A DNA stretch of 46,936 nt from Paenibacillaceae bacterium (GCA_020697475.1 JAJFMO010000001.1:1-46936); one strand, 5' to 3'; shown: positions 3,102 to 29,362, counted from the stretch's first letter. Translations and numbers: made by a program. Notes: generated by a model from the sequence alone, not told the origin.

Positions 3102-4310
3102 TCACAGTGACTCTCCGCCGCGCGTTGCGGAGTCCCGCTTAGCCGCCGGATCGCGAAAGCGCATGAGCGTGAACGCCGCCAAGGCAACGGCGGCCAAGAC
3201 GGAAGCGGCGACGAAGACGCTCCGGCCTCCCTGTTGCTCGAACAGCAGACCGCCGGCGGCGCCGCTGAGCATCCCGCCGAGGCTGCTCCACACGACGGCG
3301 AATGCCGCCTGCCCTGTGGCGCGGAAGCGGTCCGGCACCAACTGTTGGAAGTAACGAATGGCAGCCAGATAGAATACTCCGAAGGAAACGCTGTTCAACG
3401 CCTGCACCGGCAATACCCACGCAGGATCGGATATTGTAGCCATGATCGCATTTCTTAAGACATAAACGGCGCTGGCGAAGGAGAGCAGAGTCAAAGCCGA
3501 GAACCGCTCGCCATAACGGTGGAACAAATAGAAGATTGGAATTTCACCCAAGGCGGATATCGTCCAGCTCAGCCCGATCATTGACTCGTTCGCGCCAAGC
3601 CCCCGCAAGTACAAAGCCAGGAAGACATCGTTCATTCGATGGGCTACGGAGATGATCAGCAGAGCGGAGAAGAAGAAGGCGGCCTGCCTTGAAAAAATCA
3701 TTCGCCATGCATCGGACAGCTTTCCCTTACTTGCTCGGCTTTTCCGCAACCCAGCTTGCACATCAGGAAGCGTGAACGTCAACAGCAAGCTCACGCCAAC
3801 GGTGGCGATGGGCAGATAGACAGCCGCTCCGGCGCCATTTACCTGAAGCACATAGCCGAACACGAGCGAAGAGAAGGCGAAGCCGAGCGACCCGTACACG
3901 CGGAAGGATGCGTAGCTTCGACCTGTCCCTTTGAGGGTAAGCAAAGTGAGGGAGTCGTTCAGCGAGCTTGTCGGCGTCTGAAAGAAGAAAAATACCGTCA
4001 TGAGCGCCAACAAGACGGGATAGGCTTGACTTGCAAACAAGCACAAAACACAGAGAAACTGCCCGACAAAGACGATATTAAGCGCCAGCTTGACGGCTTG
4101 CAAACGGTCGCTGGCGACACCCCAAAAGACGTTGGCGACAAGCCCGATCAGCGGCCCCATCGCGTAGATGGAGCCGATCTGCAGTTTATTCAGTCCCAGC
4201 GAATCGAAATACAGCGGCAAGCAAGTGACCAGAACGGCGCTCGTCATATAGTAGGCGAACGTAAAAGCTCGCTGCTTGGCCGCTGCGGGAATCAAAGTGG
4301 TCACTTCCAA
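3102..4310 (-). CDS. MFS transporter (12-TM, LacY/PPP-like)
   Basis: 402-aa hydrophobic ORF with about 12 predicted TM segments and an MFS-like GxxxDR loop (WGVASDRL). It has a TTG start; the GTG two codons later is an alternative. It sits 19 nt downstream of the MATE-like gene. Confidence 0.85.
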   Translation of the reverse strand: MEVTTLIPAAAKQRAFTFAYYMTSAVLVTCLPLYFDSLGLNKLQIGSIYAMGPLIGLVANVFWGVASDRLQAVKLALNIVFVGQFLCVLCLFASQAYPVLLALMTVFFFFQTPTSSLNDSLTLLTLKGTGRSYASFRVYGSLGFAFSSLVFGYVLQVNGAGAAVYLPIATVGVSLLLTFTLPDVQAGLRKSRASKGKLSDAWRMIFSRQAAFFFSALLIISVAHRMNDVFLALYLRGLGANESMIGLSWTISALGEIPIFYLFHRYGERFSALTLLSFASAVYVLRNAIMATISDPAWVLPVQALNSVSFGVFYLAAIRYFQQLVPDRFRATGQAAFAVVWSSLGGMLSGAAGGLLFEQQGGRSVFVAASVLAAVALAAFTLMRFRDPAAKRDSATRGGESL

Positions 4311-4329
4311 TCGCCTCCCTTCCTCACCT

Positions 4330-5633
4330 CTAAGCAGACAGAGTGTTCGGAGCGCGCAGTCGATGGCGCGTCAATCCGCGCAGAGCCAACGTCACGACGA
4401 CGAGCTCCGCCGCGCATCCCAATGACTGTGCCCACGCGCCGATCGTGCCGTTCAGCCCCGGGGCAAAGAAGATCAGAACGACTAAAACAACCAACGTCGT
4501 TGCAAGGTTGCAGGATTGCGACAAGATCATATACTTCGTCTGGTTGAATAACATAATGAGACCGTTGCAATAATCAAGCCAAGGGAAAATCAGGTTCATG
4601 ATCATGAACACGTGCATCGCCCCGAGAATTCCCCTCAACAGTTCCGAATTCGCTTGAATACCCATCAGATGAACGAGGAACCACGCCCCGAACGGCGTAT
4701 AACACATCAAACCAATCATAGCTCCGGGGAAAAAAGCAACAGCGAGTGTAAATTTACGGACCAACACTCGATCGATCCGATAGAAGTTCAGCACAATTTG
4801 GTGAATATAGGAGAAGAAGCTCTGCATCAACTGTGCGAGATTCGAAGCAATCGCGTAAGAGGAGATGGCCAGCATCATGTCTCCCGATTTGCCGAGGAAG
4901 GCGTTGATCGCCGGCCCGATGACGACGGCGATCAGCGAGGAGAAGACGAGCGGGCGGTAGAACTCGAATACTTGACCGGATCGTTCGATGTCGTGCCCGG
5001 GCTCCTTGGTCGGCAGCTTGTGCCGTACGAGATGCAGCCCTTCGACCATGCTGACTAGACATTCGATGATCATTCCGGTCAGAAAAATAATCGCTCCGAC
5101 ACTGCCGCTGTTGACTTGATCGGTCGCGAGAAAATACCAGGAAACAAGCGCCATTCCGACCAGCCGGAAGCCCATGCCGATCGTCAGCCATTTTGTGCGT
5201 AAATGATAGATGATCACCCCGTGATACAAGCAGCGGACGCCGGAGAAAAAACTGACGAACATCAGCACACGATACAGAATACGTGCAAAAACAACATTTT
5301 TCCAAGCGGGGTATAAGAAATCGTCAATCCGAACACGAGCAAGAAGGCGAATAAATATACGGCAACCGTGGACATCGCTTTGAACGACAGGCGGTCGCGA
5401 CCGAGCCGTGTACATGTTTGCCTCAGCAGCGTGGTCGGCCGTTCACCGAGAGACATCAAACTCATTGCGACGGAGTAGCTGGCGACCAGCAGCTCGGGCT
5501 GCGACGACCGAGCCAGTGTGCTGTTAATGATGATATGGGAGATCATAACCAGACTGGCGGAGGCGCCAAGCGGCAAGAAGAAGACCAACAGCTTGCGAAA
5601 TCCTAGCGGTTCAGTGCGGTGCGTAGTCGACAT
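4330..5633 (-). pseudogene. MATE/MOP-superfamily-like polytopic membrane transporter, disrupted by a -1 frameshift
   Basis: ORFs 5262..5660 and 4330..5415 overlap and join into one continuous hydrophobic protein (...YTPLGK|NVVFARILY...) if one A is added to the A5 run (plus-strand T5 at 5297..5301). Start ATG at 5633 follows AAAGGGAA. Confidence 0.7.
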
Positions 5634-24100: not shown

Positions 24101-24538
24101 TTATAAAATCGACCCGCGATCCAACAGGATCAACAGGGCTTCGATGACGGCGGCTCCGCTTGGCGCGATGATTTTGTACAAATTCTTCGCCTGGGAAGGG
24201 CGCATACTCTCGATCATCGGGCTAATCTCTTTCACTTCTTTCTCCAACTGCTGCAGATGAAGCTGCAAGGCCGACAATTTGTCCGTCACTTGCTCGCTCT
24301 GTCCCACCTTCTCGAACTGATCAAGGCATGCTTTAATTTCTTCGAGTGTATACTTCTCCTTCTTCATCATCTCAATACGTTTGAGCCTTAGCAAAGTTTC
24401 ATCGCTGTAATAGCGATAATTCGAGTCCGATCGCTTCTCAGGCTGAATGAGTCCAAGCTTCGTATAGTAGTCAATCGTTCGCGAACTGACAGAGGAAAGC
24501 CGGGACAACTGCCCGATCTTATACAGTTTGCGTTCCAC
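24101..24538 (-). CDS. MerR family transcriptional regulator
   Basis: YKIGQLSRLSSVSSRTIDYYTKLGLI...YRYY is a MerR helix-turn-helix, followed by a coiled-coil C-terminus. I chose the GTG at 24538 (GGAGGTG 6 nt upstream) over the ORF-track start at 24598. Confidence 0.85.
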   Translation of the reverse strand: MERKLYKIGQLSRLSSVSSRTIDYYTKLGLIQPEKRSDSNYRYYSDETLLRLKRIEMMKKEKYTLEEIKACLDQFEKVGQSEQVTDKLSALQLHLQQLEKEVKEISPMIESMRPSQAKNLYKIIAPSGAAVIEALLILLDRGSIL

Positions 24539-24581
24539 AGGTTCCACCTCCGCTAGGATTGAATGTGCGGTTACTTCTCTA

Positions 24582-24611
24582 ATGATACTAGAAATCAAAC
24601 CATACAGTCAA
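24582..24611 (-). promoter_or_regulatory. candidate sigma-A promoter of the MerR operon
   Basis: On the minus strand: TTGACT, 18 nt, TATCAT. Confidence 0.4.
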
Positions 24612-24685
24612 ACGTTATAGTTTTAAATCAACGAAAAATAGTTTGTGAGGAAATATTACACAAAACACAAAATAAAATCAATTTA

Positions 24686-24702
24686 TGTTACCTTATATAA
24701 CA
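24686..24702. promoter_or_regulatory. TnrA/GlnR-type box 1 upstream of amt
   Basis: TGTTACCTTATATAACA fits the TGTNA-N7-TNACA consensus perfectly. Confidence 0.6.
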
Positions 24703-24718
24703 TAGCAATGAAGGACAT

Positions 24719-24735
24719 TGTTATATAATATGACA
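24719..24735. promoter_or_regulatory. TnrA/GlnR-type box 2, overlapping a TATAAT -10 element
   Basis: TGTTATATAATATGACA fits TGTNA-N7-TNACA perfectly. Its centre is 33 bp from box 1. It contains TATAAT (24724..24729). Confidence 0.6.
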
Positions 24736-24750
24736 AAAGGAAGTGATCGT

Positions 24751-26145
24751 ATGTTTAAAAAATCGCTGCTTCTCATCGCACTGCCATTCTTCACGTTCCC
24801 CGCTGTTACATTGGCGGCCGACGGGCCGACAACCGGTCAATTGCAATCGGCTGTCGACGCGGTTTGGGTGATGCTTGCGGCGATTCTTGTCATCTTCATG
24901 CAAGCGGGTTTTGCCTTGCTGGAGGCCGGTTCGACCCGGATGAAAAATGCCGGGCACGTAGCAGGCAAGACAATTTTGACGTTCGGCATTTGCGCCATCG
25001 CGTTTTGGGCTGCCGGATTTGCCTTCGCATTTGGCAATGGCGGCAGTTTAATCGGTTTTTCCGGATTTTTCGTCAACGGATCGGAAGAGCAGGCGGCTCA
25101 AGTTTTTTCCTCCTTGTCCTTTTCCGATGTGCCGATTTCCATCAAATTCTTATTCCAACTCGCGTTTGCCGGAGTCTCCTTGGCCATTGCCTGCGGCGGA
25201 TTTGCCGAAAGGGGCAAATTGATCGGATATTTTATTTTCGGTACCTTGTTTACTGTAGTGATTTACCCGATCGTCGCACACTGGGTGTGGGGCGGCGGCT
25301 GGCTCGCACAAATCGGCATGCAGGATTTCGCCGGATCGACGGTTGTGCATCTGCAAGGCGCTACCGCCGCGCTGGTTGCCACGATATTGTTGAAGCCCCG
25401 CTTGGGTAAGTTCAACCGTGAAGGAAAACCGAACCAGCTGCCCGGTCATAATCAAGTATTCTCGGTATTGGGCGTGATCATTCTTTGGATCGGTTGGTTC
25501 GGTTTTAATCCCGGCAGTACATTAAGCGCAATGGGCGACGGATTTTTCGGATACATTGCCCTTACGACCAATTTGGCGGCAGCAGCCGGAGCAGTCGCTG
25601 CGCTGACCGTGTCTTGGCTTGTATTCGGCAAAGCGGATATTCCAAGCATGCTCAATGGCGTGCTGGCGGCATTGGTGGCGATAACCGCATCCTGCGCTTT
25701 CGTCGAACCCGGAGCCGCCATCCTGATCGGCGCATTGGCCGGCTCCATTACCTTCTTTACCGCGCAATGGTTTGAAAAAGCAGGGGTTGACGATCCGGTA
25801 TATGCGTTCTCGGTTCACGGCATTGCAGGGATTTGGGGTACGCTGTCCACAGGTTTGTTCGCAACACCGGAATTGGCGGCTAAAGTCGGAATCGGCGGCG
25901 CAGGCTTGTTTTACGGCGGCGGTTGGCACCAGCTGGGTGTGCAAGCGCTGGGCGTGTTCGGAGCGATGGCGTTTGTCGCCTTGTTGTCCTTCCTCATTCT
26001 TGGTATTCTTCATATGACGACAGGCTTGCGCGTCACGGAGGAAGAGGAAACGATCGGGTTGGATCTGGCCGAACATGGCGTGTACGGTTATCCCGAGCAA
26101 ATGAAAGGCGCGGACGCCCATACTCGAGATGCGATCGTCACCTAA
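24751..26145 (+). CDS. amt: ammonium transporter (Amt family)
   Basis: Signal peptide, then DAVWVMLAAILVIFMQAGFALLEAG, DFAGSTVVHL, and the second His region (FSVHGIAGIWG). ATG at 24751 follows AAAGGAAG. The ORF-track start at 24718 lies inside box 2. Confidence 0.93.
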   Translation: MFKKSLLLIALPFFTFPAVTLAADGPTTGQLQSAVDAVWVMLAAILVIFMQAGFALLEAGSTRMKNAGHVAGKTILTFGICAIAFWAAGFAFAFGNGGSLIGFSGFFVNGSEEQAAQVFSSLSFSDVPISIKFLFQLAFAGVSLAIACGGFAERGKLIGYFIFGTLFTVVIYPIVAHWVWGGGWLAQIGMQDFAGSTVVHLQGATAALVATILLKPRLGKFNREGKPNQLPGHNQVFSVLGVIILWIGWFGFNPGSTLSAMGDGFFGYIALTTNLAAAAGAVAALTVSWLVFGKADIPSMLNGVLAALVAITASCAFVEPGAAILIGALAGSITFFTAQWFEKAGVDDPVYAFSVHGIAGIWGTLSTGLFATPELAAKVGIGGAGLFYGGGWHQLGVQALGVFGAMAFVALLSFLILGILHMTTGLRVTEEEETIGLDLAEHGVYGYPEQMKGADAHTRDAIVT

Positions 26146-26159
26146 GGAGTTTGGTAATC

Positions 26160-27230
26160 ATGAGCGGACTTCATCTGTATTGTACCAAACAAATTGCCGA
26201 TTGTGTCACGGTTGAACAATTAAGAGCTATAAGGGATTGCGCGTTCTCCGGTTCTGACTCCAACTTCCTGTTGGAGGATCCACTCGAATGGAACCGGCAA
26301 AATAATGAGATGCACGACCAACTGATTCGCCGTACGATTCAATTATCGGAGATGAAGCTGGCCGATCAAGGCAAGGGAACCCCTCCGGTTCCCTATGTCT
26401 TTCTCTTGTTCGGAAGTGGAGGGCGAAGCGAGCAGACACTTTGGAGCGACCAGGACAACGGACTTGTTTATGAGAATATCGGAACGGATCGTGAGAGGGG
26501 GCGGGTTGAGCAATATTTCAACGACTTGGCCTCGCTCATTTTTCATAATTTAGTCCACTTAGGCTATCCGCCTTGTCCCGGGAACGTTGTGGCAGATAAT
26601 GGCCGCTGGAGAATTCCCCTGTCTGCTTGGGAAGCCATGATTACGCGATGGATATCGACTCCCGATTGGGAAAGCATGAGATATGCGTTGATGATTAGCG
26701 ATATGCGATGGATCCACGGCGATGCGAATCTTTTCAACCGTGTGCATCGTGTCTTTCGCAACGCCATCAGGGACAATCCTCAAGTGTTAATCCCAATGTT
26801 GAAGAACACCCTTCACCACAAAGTCTCCCTTGGAGTATTCGGTCAACTTTTGCGGGAACGTTACGGCGAGTTCGCGGGAAGCGTGGATGTCAAGTATGGC
26901 ATGTATATTCCTTTCGTCAACGGGATTCGCCTGCTCTCCCTGCGCAGCGGACTTTTCACCAATTCGACGCTTGATCGACTTATGCTGTTGGAACATACCG
27001 GCGAACTGCCAGGGGATCTTGATCCGATTAAGCTGCGACATACGTTCGCCGCTTTGTTGAAGTTCAGGGCATTAACACCTTGTGAAAAGACGAATAGCGG
27101 TGTATATGCCACAACCGGCAAGCTTCCTGCCGAGATGCTGACGAAGGAACGGGTGCGGGAGATCAAGCATTGTTTGATTACCGGAAACAGCCTTCAAAGA
27201 TGGGTGGAGAAATCGGTGAATCGCCGATGA
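26160..27230 (+). CDS. DUF294-type putative nucleotidyltransferase (GlnD-like NTase plus helical substrate-binding domain), lacking CBS/cNMP sensor domains
   Basis: Pol-beta NTase signature LLFGSGGRSEQTLWSDQDNG with a helical C-terminal half. ATG at 26160 follows AAGGAG, 14 nt after the amt stop. The family name is from memory. Confidence 0.8.
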   Translation: MSGLHLYCTKQIADCVTVEQLRAIRDCAFSGSDSNFLLEDPLEWNRQNNEMHDQLIRRTIQLSEMKLADQGKGTPPVPYVFLLFGSGGRSEQTLWSDQDNGLVYENIGTDRERGRVEQYFNDLASLIFHNLVHLGYPPCPGNVVADNGRWRIPLSAWEAMITRWISTPDWESMRYALMISDMRWIHGDANLFNRVHRVFRNAIRDNPQVLIPMLKNTLHHKVSLGVFGQLLRERYGEFAGSVDVKYGMYIPFVNGIRLLSLRSGLFTNSTLDRLMLLEHTGELPGDLDPIKLRHTFAALLKFRALTPCEKTNSGVYATTGKLPAEMLTKERVREIKHCLITGNSLQRWVEKSVNRR

Positions 27231-27961
27231 ACGGTCCGGATCGTCCTCGCGCAGGAATATGGGAATTGTATCGTATGGGCGGGCTTCGACCGGCGCTTCG
27301 CTCTGTGTTCGAACCGCAAACGGCTCAACAGATGGCTTTCATTCGTTCGATGATCAAGGATCAGCGCAGGGAAGCGGCGTACTCTATGCGGTTAAAGGAA
27401 TTGAACGCCGTTGTGTTCGATTTGGAGACGACCGGCTATTACCCGGAGCAAGGCGATGAGATCATCGCGATCGGAGCGGTTTCCGTCAACGGGACGGAGA
27501 TCGACGAACAGGAACCGTTCTATACCTTGATCGATCCTGAACGATCCGTTCCACCGGAAGTGCAAGCCATAACGGGAATTACGGATGAAATGACGCAGCA
27601 TGCGCCGAAACGGATGGTAGGGCTGCGTGCGTTTCTGGAATTTGCCGACAGCAAGGTATTAATTGCTCACGGTATGCGGCATGACAAGCGTTTTCTCAAC
27701 CGCGCCTTATGGACAACATCAAGAACCGGCCTTCCTCACCGAACGCTCGATACGATGATGATCGCCGCGCTGCTATATCCCGAGGAGGCGCCGTATACGC
27801 TTGAACCGTTGTTGCAGCGCCATGGAATTGCCGTCCATGGACGCCATCACGCTTTGCAAGATGCCCTCATGGCTGCCAAGCTGTGGTGCGCGATGTCGAG
27901 AGAGATGATGGATCGCGGATTGGAGACGTTAGGTGACGTCTACGAGGAATTGAACGGCTAG
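27227..27961 (+). CDS. DEDDh 3'-5' exonuclease (DnaQ/PolIII-epsilon-like) with an N-terminal extension of about 65 aa
   Basis: Exo I VVFDLETTG, Exo II region LIAHGMRHDKRFL, and Exo III HHALQDALMAA. The start overlaps the upstream stop (ATGA at 27227..27230). Confidence 0.8.
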   Translation: MNGPDRPRAGIWELYRMGGLRPALRSVFEPQTAQQMAFIRSMIKDQRREAAYSMRLKELNAVVFDLETTGYYPEQGDEIIAIGAVSVNGTEIDEQEPFYTLIDPERSVPPEVQAITGITDEMTQHAPKRMVGLRAFLEFADSKVLIAHGMRHDKRFLNRALWTTSRTGLPHRTLDTMMIAALLYPEEAPYTLEPLLQRHGIAVHGRHHALQDALMAAKLWCAMSREMMDRGLETLGDVYEELNG

Positions 27962-28017
27962 ATAATGGCATTCGTAAAAATAATTCATATGAATTTTGCG
28001 ACGTTCCCCCGACTGAA

Positions 28018-28047
28018 AACCGGAGATATTTTTCTCTGGTTTTTTTA
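28018..28047 (+). terminator. intrinsic terminator of the amt-NTase-exonuclease unit
   Basis: ACCGGAGA...TCTCTGGT stem (one G-T pair) followed by T7. Confidence 0.75.
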
Positions 28048-28246
28048 TTTGAAGCAAACAATCTGCCGTTTTGTTCCGTTTACTCATAACGGAACTATCG
28101 AGGTTCCGGGCAAGCCCGAGTTTGCTTACAAAAATTTTACAATCTCGATTCTGGTTGAAGCCTTAAAAACGATTATAATATAACTAAAAAGGTTGTATAT
28201 TGCATGTACTGCTTGTACTGCTTGGATAAGGAGATGAAAGGCCATT

Positions 28247-29362
28247 ATGATGTCGCGGCGCCGTTTCTTGAAAGGGATGTTGTTGTCACTCGGGATTGTG
28301 ACCGGAGGAATCATTGCGGTATTGGAATTTGTAACGGGAAAGCGGTTCGCGTTGTTTTCCCAGACCGTTCCGGTATCCGATGCGCCGGAGCAGGGCGGAG
28401 AAGTTCCGGTGTCGCGACCCGTTGGCGAGGCAGCCGTTGTAGAGCAGGCTGAACCCCAAGCAGAGGAAACGGCGTCGAACGAACTGCTGCTTTCTTTCTT
28501 CCTGCTCAGCGACATGCATATCTCGATGGATCAACCCATAATGACGGACAAATTGCATTGGGCGCTGAAGGATTTGACGAATTTCGAATCGAAGGTGGAT
28601 ATGATCGTGTTCGGCGGCGACTTGACCGATTTCGGCAGGGACGGCGACTACGATCTGCTGAAGAGCACTATGGCTCAATATAAGCTGCCTCCATTTTATG
28701 GGAACATGGGCAATCATGATTATTACGATATTTGGCTGGATCAGAAGAACGGCTGGTTTTCCGAGAAGACGATGCCCAACGGCAAGACCGACGCGATGGC
28801 TCGCAATCGATTCCTCAACTTTATCGGGTACAAGGACGGCAATGTCTATAAGGATGTGTATGTCAACGGTGTCCACCTGATTATGGTTTCTCAGGAATGC
28901 TATGTACAGGAGAAACGGGACGTCGGCGAAGGCGCTTGGTATAAGGACGATCAGCTGGATTGGTTGAAAAAGGCGATGGAACCGCACAAAGACGGATCTC
29001 CGGCGATTGTTTTTATCCACCAACCGCTGCCTTCGCAAGGAGGCGACGGGCGCACCCACCAACTGATACGCGCCACCGAGTTCCGTGCGATAATGGAACC
29101 CTACAAGAATGTCGTCGTGCTGTCCGGCCATACCCACTGGGATTTCAATGTCAACAACCACGACAATCCGGGGGAGACGTTCCGCTGGTTCAACAATTCG
29201 GCGGTCGGTCCTTGCCGCGGCGACTCCACCAGATCGAGCAAGCGGTCGCAAGGGATGTATGTTCAAGTGTACAAAGATAAAATCCATGTGCGCGGCCGGG
29301 AATTCAGCGATCGTTCATGGATCGAATCTGCGGATTGGGAAGTTCCGATCGTTAAAGTTTGA
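28247..29362 (+). CDS. Tat-secreted metallophosphoesterase (calcineurin-like)
   Basis: Twin-arginine signal MMSRRRFLKGM. All five phosphoesterase motifs are present: DMHI, GGDLTDFG, GNHDYY, FIHQP and SGHTHW. Confidence 0.85.
   Translation: MMSRRRFLKGMLLSLGIVTGGIIAVLEFVTGKRFALFSQTVPVSDAPEQGGEVPVSRPVGEAAVVEQAEPQAEETASNELLLSFFLLSDMHISMDQPIMTDKLHWALKDLTNFESKVDMIVFGGDLTDFGRDGDYDLLKSTMAQYKLPPFYGNMGNHDYYDIWLDQKNGWFSEKTMPNGKTDAMARNRFLNFIGYKDGNVYKDVYVNGVHLIMVSQECYVQEKRDVGEGAWYKDDQLDWLKKAMEPHKDGSPAIVFIHQPLPSQGGDGRTHQLIRATEFRAIMEPYKNVVVLSGHTHWDFNVNNHDNPGETFRWFNNSAVGPCRGDSTRSSKRSQGMYVQVYKDKIHVRGREFSDRSWIESADWEVPIVKV

Follow-up and report, generated by a model that had tools for sequence, protein, structure and literature searches.

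An amt operon of Paenibacillaceae with a short-form DUF294 nucleotidyltransferase and a DEDDh exonuclease, a gene pair related to a wider transporter-linked module

We analysed a stretch of 46,936 nucleotides (nt) from a Paenibacillaceae bacterium (GCA_020697475.1 JAJFMO010000001.1:1-46936), called the window below, in which the ammonium transporter gene amt is followed by genes for a DUF294 nucleotidyltransferase (NTase) and a DEDDh 3'-5' exonuclease (Table 1). An earlier note on this DNA had described the three open reading frames (ORFs), a 14-nt junction with AAGGAG between the first two, an ATGA overlap between the last two and a terminator behind the third; all of these proved to be real, and we place the terminator stem at 28015-28044.

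Table 1. Genes and signals of the amt locus in the window (aa, amino acids; bp, base pairs; RBS, ribosome-binding site)
Feature	Position	Strand	Remarks
GlnR/TnrA-type box 1, TGTGAGGAAATATTACA	24644..24660	+	exact TGTNAN7TNACA match
GlnR/TnrA-type box 2, TGTTACCTTATATAACA	24686..24702	+	exact TGTNAN7TNACA match
GlnR/TnrA-type box 3, TGTTATATAATATGACA	24719..24735	+	exact match; includes TATAAT hexamer, 24724-24729
amt RBS, AAAGGAAG	24736-24743	+	
amt, ammonium transporter, 464 aa	24751..26145	+	PF00909, TIGR00836
DUF294-gene RBS AAGGAG, overlaps amt stop codon	26144..26149	+	read from sequence
Short-form DUF294 nucleotidyltransferase, 356 aa	26160..27230	+	PF03445 + PF10335
DEDDh 3'-5' exonuclease, 244 aa	27227..27961	+	PF00929 + NF005836
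Intrinsic terminator at operon end	28015..28050	+	12-bp stem + U-tract
MerR-family regulator, 165 aa, divergent from amt	24101..24598	-	PF13411 E=2e-19; context only

The amt stop codon (TAA, 26143-26145) is separated by 14 nt from the DUF294 start codon (ATG, 26160); at the second junction the ATGA at 27227-27230 joins the DUF294 stop codon to the exonuclease start codon. The gene caller chose an in-frame ATG at 27200 for the exonuclease, which gives a protein of 253 aa; both starts overlap the DUF294 stop. The 12-bp stem of the terminator is followed by a U-run (-15.9 kcal/mol, z=-4.6). An internal promoter or terminator that would set amt apart from the two downstream genes, a point raised in the earlier note, did not emerge: promoter-like and terminator-like signals within the operon were no more frequent than in shuffled sequence. 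A hairpin within the DUF294 coding region (26368-26401, + strand; -18.7 kcal/mol, z=-4.8), which is followed by UCUUUCUCU, was considered as a conserved attenuator or terminator and rejected, with the homologous region reaching -15 kcal/mol or lower in 4 of 62 loci.

The operator consensus of GlnR and TnrA is TGTNAN7TNACA (PMC6191146). In the 46.9-kb window this pattern has three matches, all located in the 92 bp upstream of amt, vs 0.21 expected by chance; none of 100 shuffles produced three. The earlier note had listed two boxes. Their presence was confirmed and their number was not, as the third box, at 24644, lies just outside the coordinates covered there. Since box 3 overlaps a -10-like hexamer, it may be a site of repression. 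The product of the divergent MerR-family gene was tried as a TnrA/GlnR protein and rejected (27.5 bits vs a cutoff of 140).

A scan with one genome per species gave 310 loci with DUF294 relatives, and the best 80 of the 310 were kept; they come from Paenibacillus, Cohnella, Gordoniibacillus or a Bacilli metagenome-assembled genome (MAG). The genes amt, DUF294 and exonuclease stand in the same order in 80/80 loci. DUF294 is mostly separated by 27-60 nt from amt and by 0-50 nt from the exonuclease gene. In 77 of the 80, one or more GlnR/TnrA boxes lie in the intergenic region in front of amt; the density of boxes in this position (2.3 per kb) is ~110-fold higher than elsewhere in the loci (0.021 per kb). 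Given the 14-nt and overlapping junctions, the short gaps in relatives, the single terminator and the conserved upstream boxes, we conclude with high confidence that amt, DUF294 and the exonuclease gene make up one three-gene operon under GlnR/TnrA boxes. That the operon is regulated by nitrogen, as proposed earlier, is what its boxes, tight junctions and single terminator predict.

The pair could, in principle, consist of housekeeping genes of DNA repair or nucleotide metabolism that happen to follow amt. A whole block, LysR-peptidase-MerR-amt-...-JAB-MFS, is syntenic in Paenibacillaceae loci, and the divergent 165-aa MerR regulator adjoins amt in 80/80 of them and not beyond Paenibacillaceae. 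The count of 80/80 alone could thus reflect inheritance and is no proof of coupling; hence we looked at distant short-form DUF294 homologues with 30-36% identity. The trio was found in loci L084, L085, L086 (Aneurinibacillus), L091 (a Bacillaceae MAG) and L092 (Marinithermofilum); the flanks are unrelated in L085, L086, L091 and L092, while L084 is a 2.3-kb contig with the trio only. In L087 (Kyrpidia) the order is rearranged to DUF294-exonuclease-amt. GlnR/TnrA boxes of L085 and L086 are located solely directly upstream of amt (10-13 kb examined), and in Aneurinibacillus L086 a TnrA-like gene (4173-4436, 122 bits) stands immediately upstream of amt in place of the MerR gene. Every short-form DUF294 gene with a readable neighbourhood adjoins amt. 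The synteny of the pair with amt, to which the earlier note had pointed as a check, is therefore present in 80/80 related loci and in more distant Bacillales, once in rearranged form. Since the trio is kept despite unrelated flanks and a rearranged order, the amt linkage of the short-form pair is functional and goes beyond local synteny. Chance adjacency, against which the tight or overlapping junctions and the conserved upstream boxes speak as well, is disfavoured and appears highly improbable.

In comparison with canonical amtB-glnK (nrgAB) operons, the window has the operator upstream of amt and lacks the adjacent PII gene. When a manually entered E. coli GlnB sequence was used as tblastn query, the window yielded no PII-like ORF (best E=1.0), and the 80 related loci had no PII gene in their +-10 kb surroundings, in agreement with the earlier observation that no such gene adjoins amt. 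The accompanying premise of a near-universal pairing of amt and a PII gene fails in Bacillales. According to our count of Table 1 in Kormelink et al., glnK is found in ~14 of ~34 amtB-bearing Bacillales genomes (PMC3412718); absence of PII beside amt is thus not remarkable by itself in this group.

The arrangement as such is not new. Operons of the type amtB-DUF294-dnaQ were recorded in 2012 by Kormelink et al. (BMC Genomics 13:191, Table 1, footnote d; PMC3412718) in Anoxybacillus flavithermus, four Geobacillus, Paenibacillus polymyxa E681, Paenibacillus sp. JDR-2 and Brevibacillus brevis, with the same three genes, GlnR-site context and lack of an adjacent glnK as in the window. In six of these eight genomes glnK is absent altogether; the other two have glnK and extra amtB copies (PMC3412718). 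Beyond +-10 kb, the glnK-less status rests on this source. The footnote is not discussed further in that paper, which gives no analysis, fold, wider distribution or function (PMC3412718). Mutual exclusion of the pair and glnK at the operon level is supported, and the window is a further instance of a widespread uncharacterised operon type. What we add is that the amt linkage is broad and does not depend on context and that the pair belongs together with a long-form module that is linked to sodium:solute symporters (SSS) and has a fitness phenotype there; a natural fusion protein and the specific GlnE/DrrA fold assignment are further additions.

Profile searches upheld the domain assignments made earlier (DUF294, DUF294_C and RNase_T/DEDDh). 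The 356-aa protein matches PF03445 with E=1.7e-35 (122.3 bits; gathering threshold, GA, 21) and, in its DUF294_C domain, PF10335 with E=7.5e-19 (68.4 bits; GA 22.5). A Pfam search found no cyclic-nucleotide (cNMP, PF00027) or CBS (PF00571) domain in this protein: it begins with ~48 helical residues in place of the N-terminal cNMP and tandem CBS sensors typical of COG2905. Among 42 homologues the pol-beta NTase motif G85-x11-D97-x-D99 and S86 are invariant; D181 and R183 are invariant too. The motif G-x11-D-x-D is, we assume, common to the GlnE and DrrA families.

An AlphaFold2 model of the DUF294 protein (predicted local distance difference test score, pLDDT, 92; predicted template-modelling score, pTM, 0.91) consists of an NTase domain and the helical DUF294_C domain. 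A Foldseek search of this model against PDB returned just four matches with E<=1e-3, to DrrA (E=1e-8) and to both halves of GlnE (1v4a, 7e-7; 3k7d, 1.6e-6), with E values from 1e-8 to 3e-6 and template-modelling (TM) scores of 0.57-0.63. DrrA and both GlnE halves are protein-tyrosine AMP-transferase or AMP-removal domains. Other NTases scored far lower: aminoglycoside NTases had TM ~0.27, HalB 0.19, TUTase 0.15 and CdnE 0.15. The modelled fold is thus GlnE/DrrA-like, and the NTase plus helical domain is what the protein shares with GlnE and the AMPylation domain of Legionella DrrA/SidM; it differs from both in sequence (13-15% identity), in having a single NTase domain and in its partners and targets. 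At the sequence level, a profile of the DUF294 protein against PDB sequences produced nothing significant (best E=0.42), the NCBIfam search matched no family and Pfam gave the DUF294 models only. The relation to GlnD and GlnE drawn in the earlier note was in part borne out. The GlnE/DrrA-like fold stands; membership in the GlnD/GlnE family was rejected, given that HD and ACT domains, tandem NTase domains and an NCBIfam match are all missing.

Toxin-antitoxin systems of the MNT-HEPN type (MntA-HepT), which work by tyrosine AMPylation and poly-AMPylation, resemble the pair in that an NTase gene adjoins a nuclease gene, and DUF294_C belongs to a KNTase_C/HEPN-related clan. The fold match, however, is weak (TM ~0.2, E>0.3), the nuclease of the window is of DEDDh rather than HEPN type, and the genes lie in a transporter operon, not in a mobile or defence locus. 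A defence-system reading was rejected, since the DUF294 protein has no PADLOC match and the exonuclease has generic DEDDh matches only.

The exonuclease matches PF00929 (RNase_T, E=2.7e-32) and, narrowly over the cutoff (267.8 vs 261 bits), NF005836/PRK07740, an equivalog named 'hypothetical protein'; an Rv2179c-like exoribonuclease profile matches as well. In an alignment of 88 sequences D65, E67 (Exo I, DxE) and D153 (Exo II, D) are invariant, and H207 and D212 (Exo III, Hx4D) are present in 85, the other three having gaps. The nearest relatives by sequence and fold are the exonuclease domains of PolC, DinG and DnaQ (~30% identity, root-mean-square deviation ~2.3 A). As judged from the invariant residues, both the DUF294 protein and the exonuclease look active.

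In front of the catalytic domain the exonuclease carries an N-terminal extension of ~55 aa (27227-27391), which is family-specific and belongs to the most conserved parts of the protein: W12, Y15, G18, G19, Q35, M36, A37, F38 and R40 are invariant. The QQxAFIR core of the extension is retained in other Amt-linked lineages. Residues 1-30 are predicted to be disordered (pLDDT <50) despite this conservation. The extension is a candidate docking segment for the DUF294 protein or for Amt.

To place the pair in a wider context, we surveyed plasmids and chromids by tblastn and inspected contig neighbourhoods. The DUF294 family has 2978 cluster representatives (E<=1e-3). Long forms of ~590-640 aa have the architecture cNMP-CBS-DUF294-DUF294_C; compared with the forms of the window, identity is 26-36% in the NTase and 30-37% in the exonuclease. 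The gene order in Paracoccus denitrificans is acs, DUF4212, SSS, DUF294, hypothetical, response regulator, exonuclease; Shinella has DUF4212, SSS, DUF294, hypothetical, exonuclease, and Skermanella DUF4212, SSS, DUF294. In Desulfonatronum DUF485, SSF and a long DUF294 gene are found with no exonuclease gene, and in an archaeon of the Archaeoglobaceae DUF294 and RNase_T genes are divergent from SSF-Acs. Cytobacillus and Vibrio tritonius have the DUF294 and exonuclease pair alone, with no transporter gene adjacent. The protein P0174 is a natural CBS-DUF294-DUF294_C-RNase_T fusion in one chain, which indicates that the two enzymes act together. Another fusion, P0251 (PHP-Cache-PAS-CBS-DUF294), has a PHP phosphoesterase domain that may replace the exonuclease.

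The COG2905-type cNMP-CBS-DUF294 protein with a DnaQ-like exonuclease, encoded beside ActP/SSS-DUF4212/DUF485 and acs, has the same gene order downstream of the transporter as the pair of the window; the long form carries sensors and serves carboxylate symporters, whereas the window form is sensor-less and serves Amt. With high confidence we regard the window pair as the Bacillales short form of a widespread module of DUF294 and DEDDh exonuclease. The same high confidence applies to its attachment to small-solute transporters: to Amt in Bacillales and, in Proteobacteria and Archaea, to sodium:solute carboxylate symporters, where acs may or may not be present. The module seems to be a device linked to transporters in general, which was joined to Amt in Bacillales. 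The proposal of the earlier note that the pair is a nitrogen-specific occupant of a 'PII slot' does not hold, given that Alphaproteobacteria and Archaeoglobaceae have the same module beside acs and carboxylate symporters.

Two further genes were seen next to long DUF294 genes. The alphaproteobacterial SSS clusters have, after DUF294, a gene for a hypothetical protein of 165-193 aa (L082 6914-7411, L083 6918-7499 and L094 7026-7556); the L082 and L083 copies had no Pfam match and the L082 copy no NCBIfam match. This protein may be a third component of the module. In Desulfonatronum, where a DEDDh exonuclease gene is missing, the long DUF294 gene is followed by a gene for a PD-(D/E)XK nuclease (PDDEXK_3; L088 7918-8289). 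Members of the PDDEXK_3 family are often mobile-like. We did not count this gene as a partner of the module; it is probably incidental, and it could also be an alternative nuclease partner.

Phenotypic data exist for the symporter-linked form. Genes of DUF4212/SSS transporters are cofit with nearby genes Sama_1525 and Psest_0349, described as 'COG2905 (RNAse T domain protein)' (Price et al., bioRxiv 10.1101/072470). Judged by the gene order in Paracoccus and Shinella, it is most probably the exonuclease gene that lies two positions behind the symporter and is cofit with it. In P. aeruginosa the genes PA3232-PA3235, including actP, were induced ~16-fold as a cluster; literature on PA3232 and PA3233 contained expression data only.

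Price et al. speculate that the COG2905/RNAse T gene is needed for the symporter to be expressed (bioRxiv 10.1101/072470), and this brings in control at the RNA level, in which the pair would tail and trim the 3' end of the operon mRNA or of a regulatory RNA needed for transporter expression. The match of the exonuclease to RNase_T and Rv2179c-like exoribonuclease profiles is in line with such a role, and so is the encoding of the module in cis with the transporter (Cytobacillus and Vibrio tritonius having the pair alone). However, the DUF294 fold is distant from those of RNA-tailing NTases, and an exonuclease normally destabilises RNA, which predicts phenotypes that are anti-correlated and not cofit. 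The operon showed no conserved RNA structure; no systematic RNA search was run, and the one strong hairpin is unconserved. We consider control of this kind to be quite unlikely.

The Amt protein itself matches PF00909 (E=1e-111) and TIGR00836 (402.8 bits vs a cutoff of 343), and its N-terminus is a signal-like segment. The pore motifs DFAGSTVVH, WFGFNPGS and VHGIAGIWG are intact in the translation; we take them to correspond to D160, H168, F215, S219 and H318 of E. coli. Among PDB sequences, 6eu6 (226 bits), presumably the ammonium sensor Ks-Amt5, and 8qj3/8qpf (chains of 644-661 aa, 214 bits) match best; lower scores were obtained for Af-Amt1 (187 bits) and AmtB of E. coli (175 bits). The protein terminates in a conserved YGYPEQ segment, the last Tyr of which aligns with the generic 'AY' tyrosine of Amts; the Tyr before it may be specific to the group, and so may the PEQ. 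As a separate observation, the C-termini of module-linked Amts (26077-26100 region; L001-L092) share the pattern GLRV(T/S)EE(E/Q)E..GLD(L/V/I)(S/A)EHGxYGYPE(Q/A/H) across five families.

The ranking of PDB matches, with 6eu6 and 8qj3/8qpf ahead of Amt-1 and AmtB, is what one would expect if Amt were a transceptor signalling the presence of ammonium outside or the state of its own transport, upon which the DUF294 protein would nucleotidylylate glutamine synthetase (GS), GlnR or TnrA and the exonuclease would reset the modification. The short form has no sensor domains of its own, GlnE offers a precedent by modifying GS, and sensor Amts fused to kinases or cyclases are a parallel. On the other side, the transport-pore motifs of Amt are intact, and the SSS-linked modules have the transporter alone in common, with no shared soluble partner. 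Moreover, GS of the Bacillus type is not, to our knowledge, adenylylated. The transceptor model seems rather improbable to us.

Our preferred reading, which we hold tentatively and at somewhat less than an even chance, is that the DUF294 protein and the exonuclease form a nucleotide-based writer/eraser switch on the transporter. The DUF294 protein would be a protein nucleotidylyltransferase of GlnE/DrrA type. It would mark the transporter on its cytoplasmic face, or else a protein bound there, with AMP, UMP or a short oligonucleotidyl group and thereby turn uptake off; the co-translated DEDDh exonuclease would cleave the phosphodiester, free a nucleoside 5'-monophosphate and restore uptake. 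A role in protein modification is favoured because DrrA and GlnE are the sole significant fold matches of the DUF294 protein, and a switch on the transporter fits because the transporter is the sole common neighbour across contexts. Loss of the eraser would lock the transporter off, and cofitness of exonuclease and symporter would follow. The input to the short form would probably be the state of the transporter itself or a nitrogen metabolite, the CBS and cNMP sensors being absent.

In glnK-less Bacilli, the module would replace both the plugging of AmtB by GlnK and the uridylylation by GlnD; it would act as a fast post-translational brake that averts futile NH3/NH4+ cycling, with GlnR/TnrA setting transcription separately. 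The brake that GlnK/GlnD put on AmtB is one parallel; another is found in plant AMT1 and in Mep2 of yeast, which are covalently controlled at the C-terminal region. Like the AmtB-GlnK-GlnD system, the operon of the window combines an Amt co-transcribed with a presumed regulator, the nucleotidyl-transfer chemistry of a pol-beta NTase and nitrogen-controlled transcription. Unlike that system, it has no PII; the NTase, whose gene is part of the amt operon itself, is devoid of HD and ACT domains, and the partner is a DEDDh exonuclease, not an HD hydrolase.

Several points weigh against a writer/eraser switch. Its weak point is that we know of no DEDDh enzyme that removes a protein-linked nucleotide, and the nearest relatives of the exonuclease, PolC, DinG and DnaQ, are DNA proofreaders. 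The C-terminal tyrosine of Amt was tried as a trio-specific target and rejected, the aligned Tyr being generic to Amts. The pairs of Cytobacillus and Vibrio tritonius have no transporter gene beside them on which to act. We found no literature that joins DUF294 with an exonuclease and no biochemical data on any DUF294 protein; the one publication found to name PF03445/PF10335 was a HEPN survey. Finally, Price et al. are ambiguous on the identity of the cofit gene and favour an effect on expression (bioRxiv 10.1101/072470).

The kinship of the exonuclease with nucleic-acid 3'-5' enzymes of the PolC/DinG/DnaQ type is in line with a non-covalent gate. The DUF294 protein would make a short oligo(deoxy)nucleotide without a template; bound to the transporter or to a partner, this product would keep the transporter closed or open, and the exonuclease would degrade the oligonucleotide. 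The Hailong system, in which the NTase HalB makes oligo-deoxyadenylate that gates the HalA channel, is a precedent. An NTase paired or fused with an exonuclease makes a natural writer/eraser of polynucleotides, the DUF294 protein P0251 bears a PHP phosphoesterase domain, and the finding that the RNase T gene and the symporter are cofit would suit this gate as well. The fold, however, resembles protein AMPylators, whereas HalB, TUTase and CdnE have TM <0.2; the DUF294 protein has no PADLOC match, and no nucleic-acid-binding domain is evident in Amt. We consider such a gate unlikely. The more general statement, that the module is a PII-independent, nucleotide-based transporter gate common to Amt of Bacillales and to sodium:solute carboxylate symporters of Bacteria and Archaea, whether it works through a covalent mark or a non-covalent oligonucleotide plug, is in our view doubtful.

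As to how Amt is restrained in the many Bacilli without PII, the operon is a concrete and testable candidate, and it occurs in tractable species of the genera Geobacillus and Brevibacillus and in Paenibacillus polymyxa. In diazotrophic Paenibacillus it would bear on ammonium retention and excretion. The module follows symporters of acetate, lactate and alanine type in Proteobacteria and Archaea, and a fitness phenotype is already known in that setting; if its role were worked out in one case, a widespread family would gain a function, and a new post-translational control of transporters could come to light. If the module were a PII-independent, nucleotide-based gate, covalent or not, the DEDDh enzyme would be the first 'exonuclease' that serves a transporter by de-nucleotidylylation or by erasing a signal.

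Downstream of the operon, a gene for a calcineurin-like phosphoesterase with a twin-arginine-like N-terminus, MMSRRRFLKG, is located at 28247-29362 (+), between the exonuclease gene and the JAB gene. It has no tblastn counterpart in any of the 80 related loci and thus looks like a lineage-specific insertion. The JAB gene in related loci usually begins no more than ~100 nt after the exonuclease gene; in six loci it is 0.6-8 kb away.

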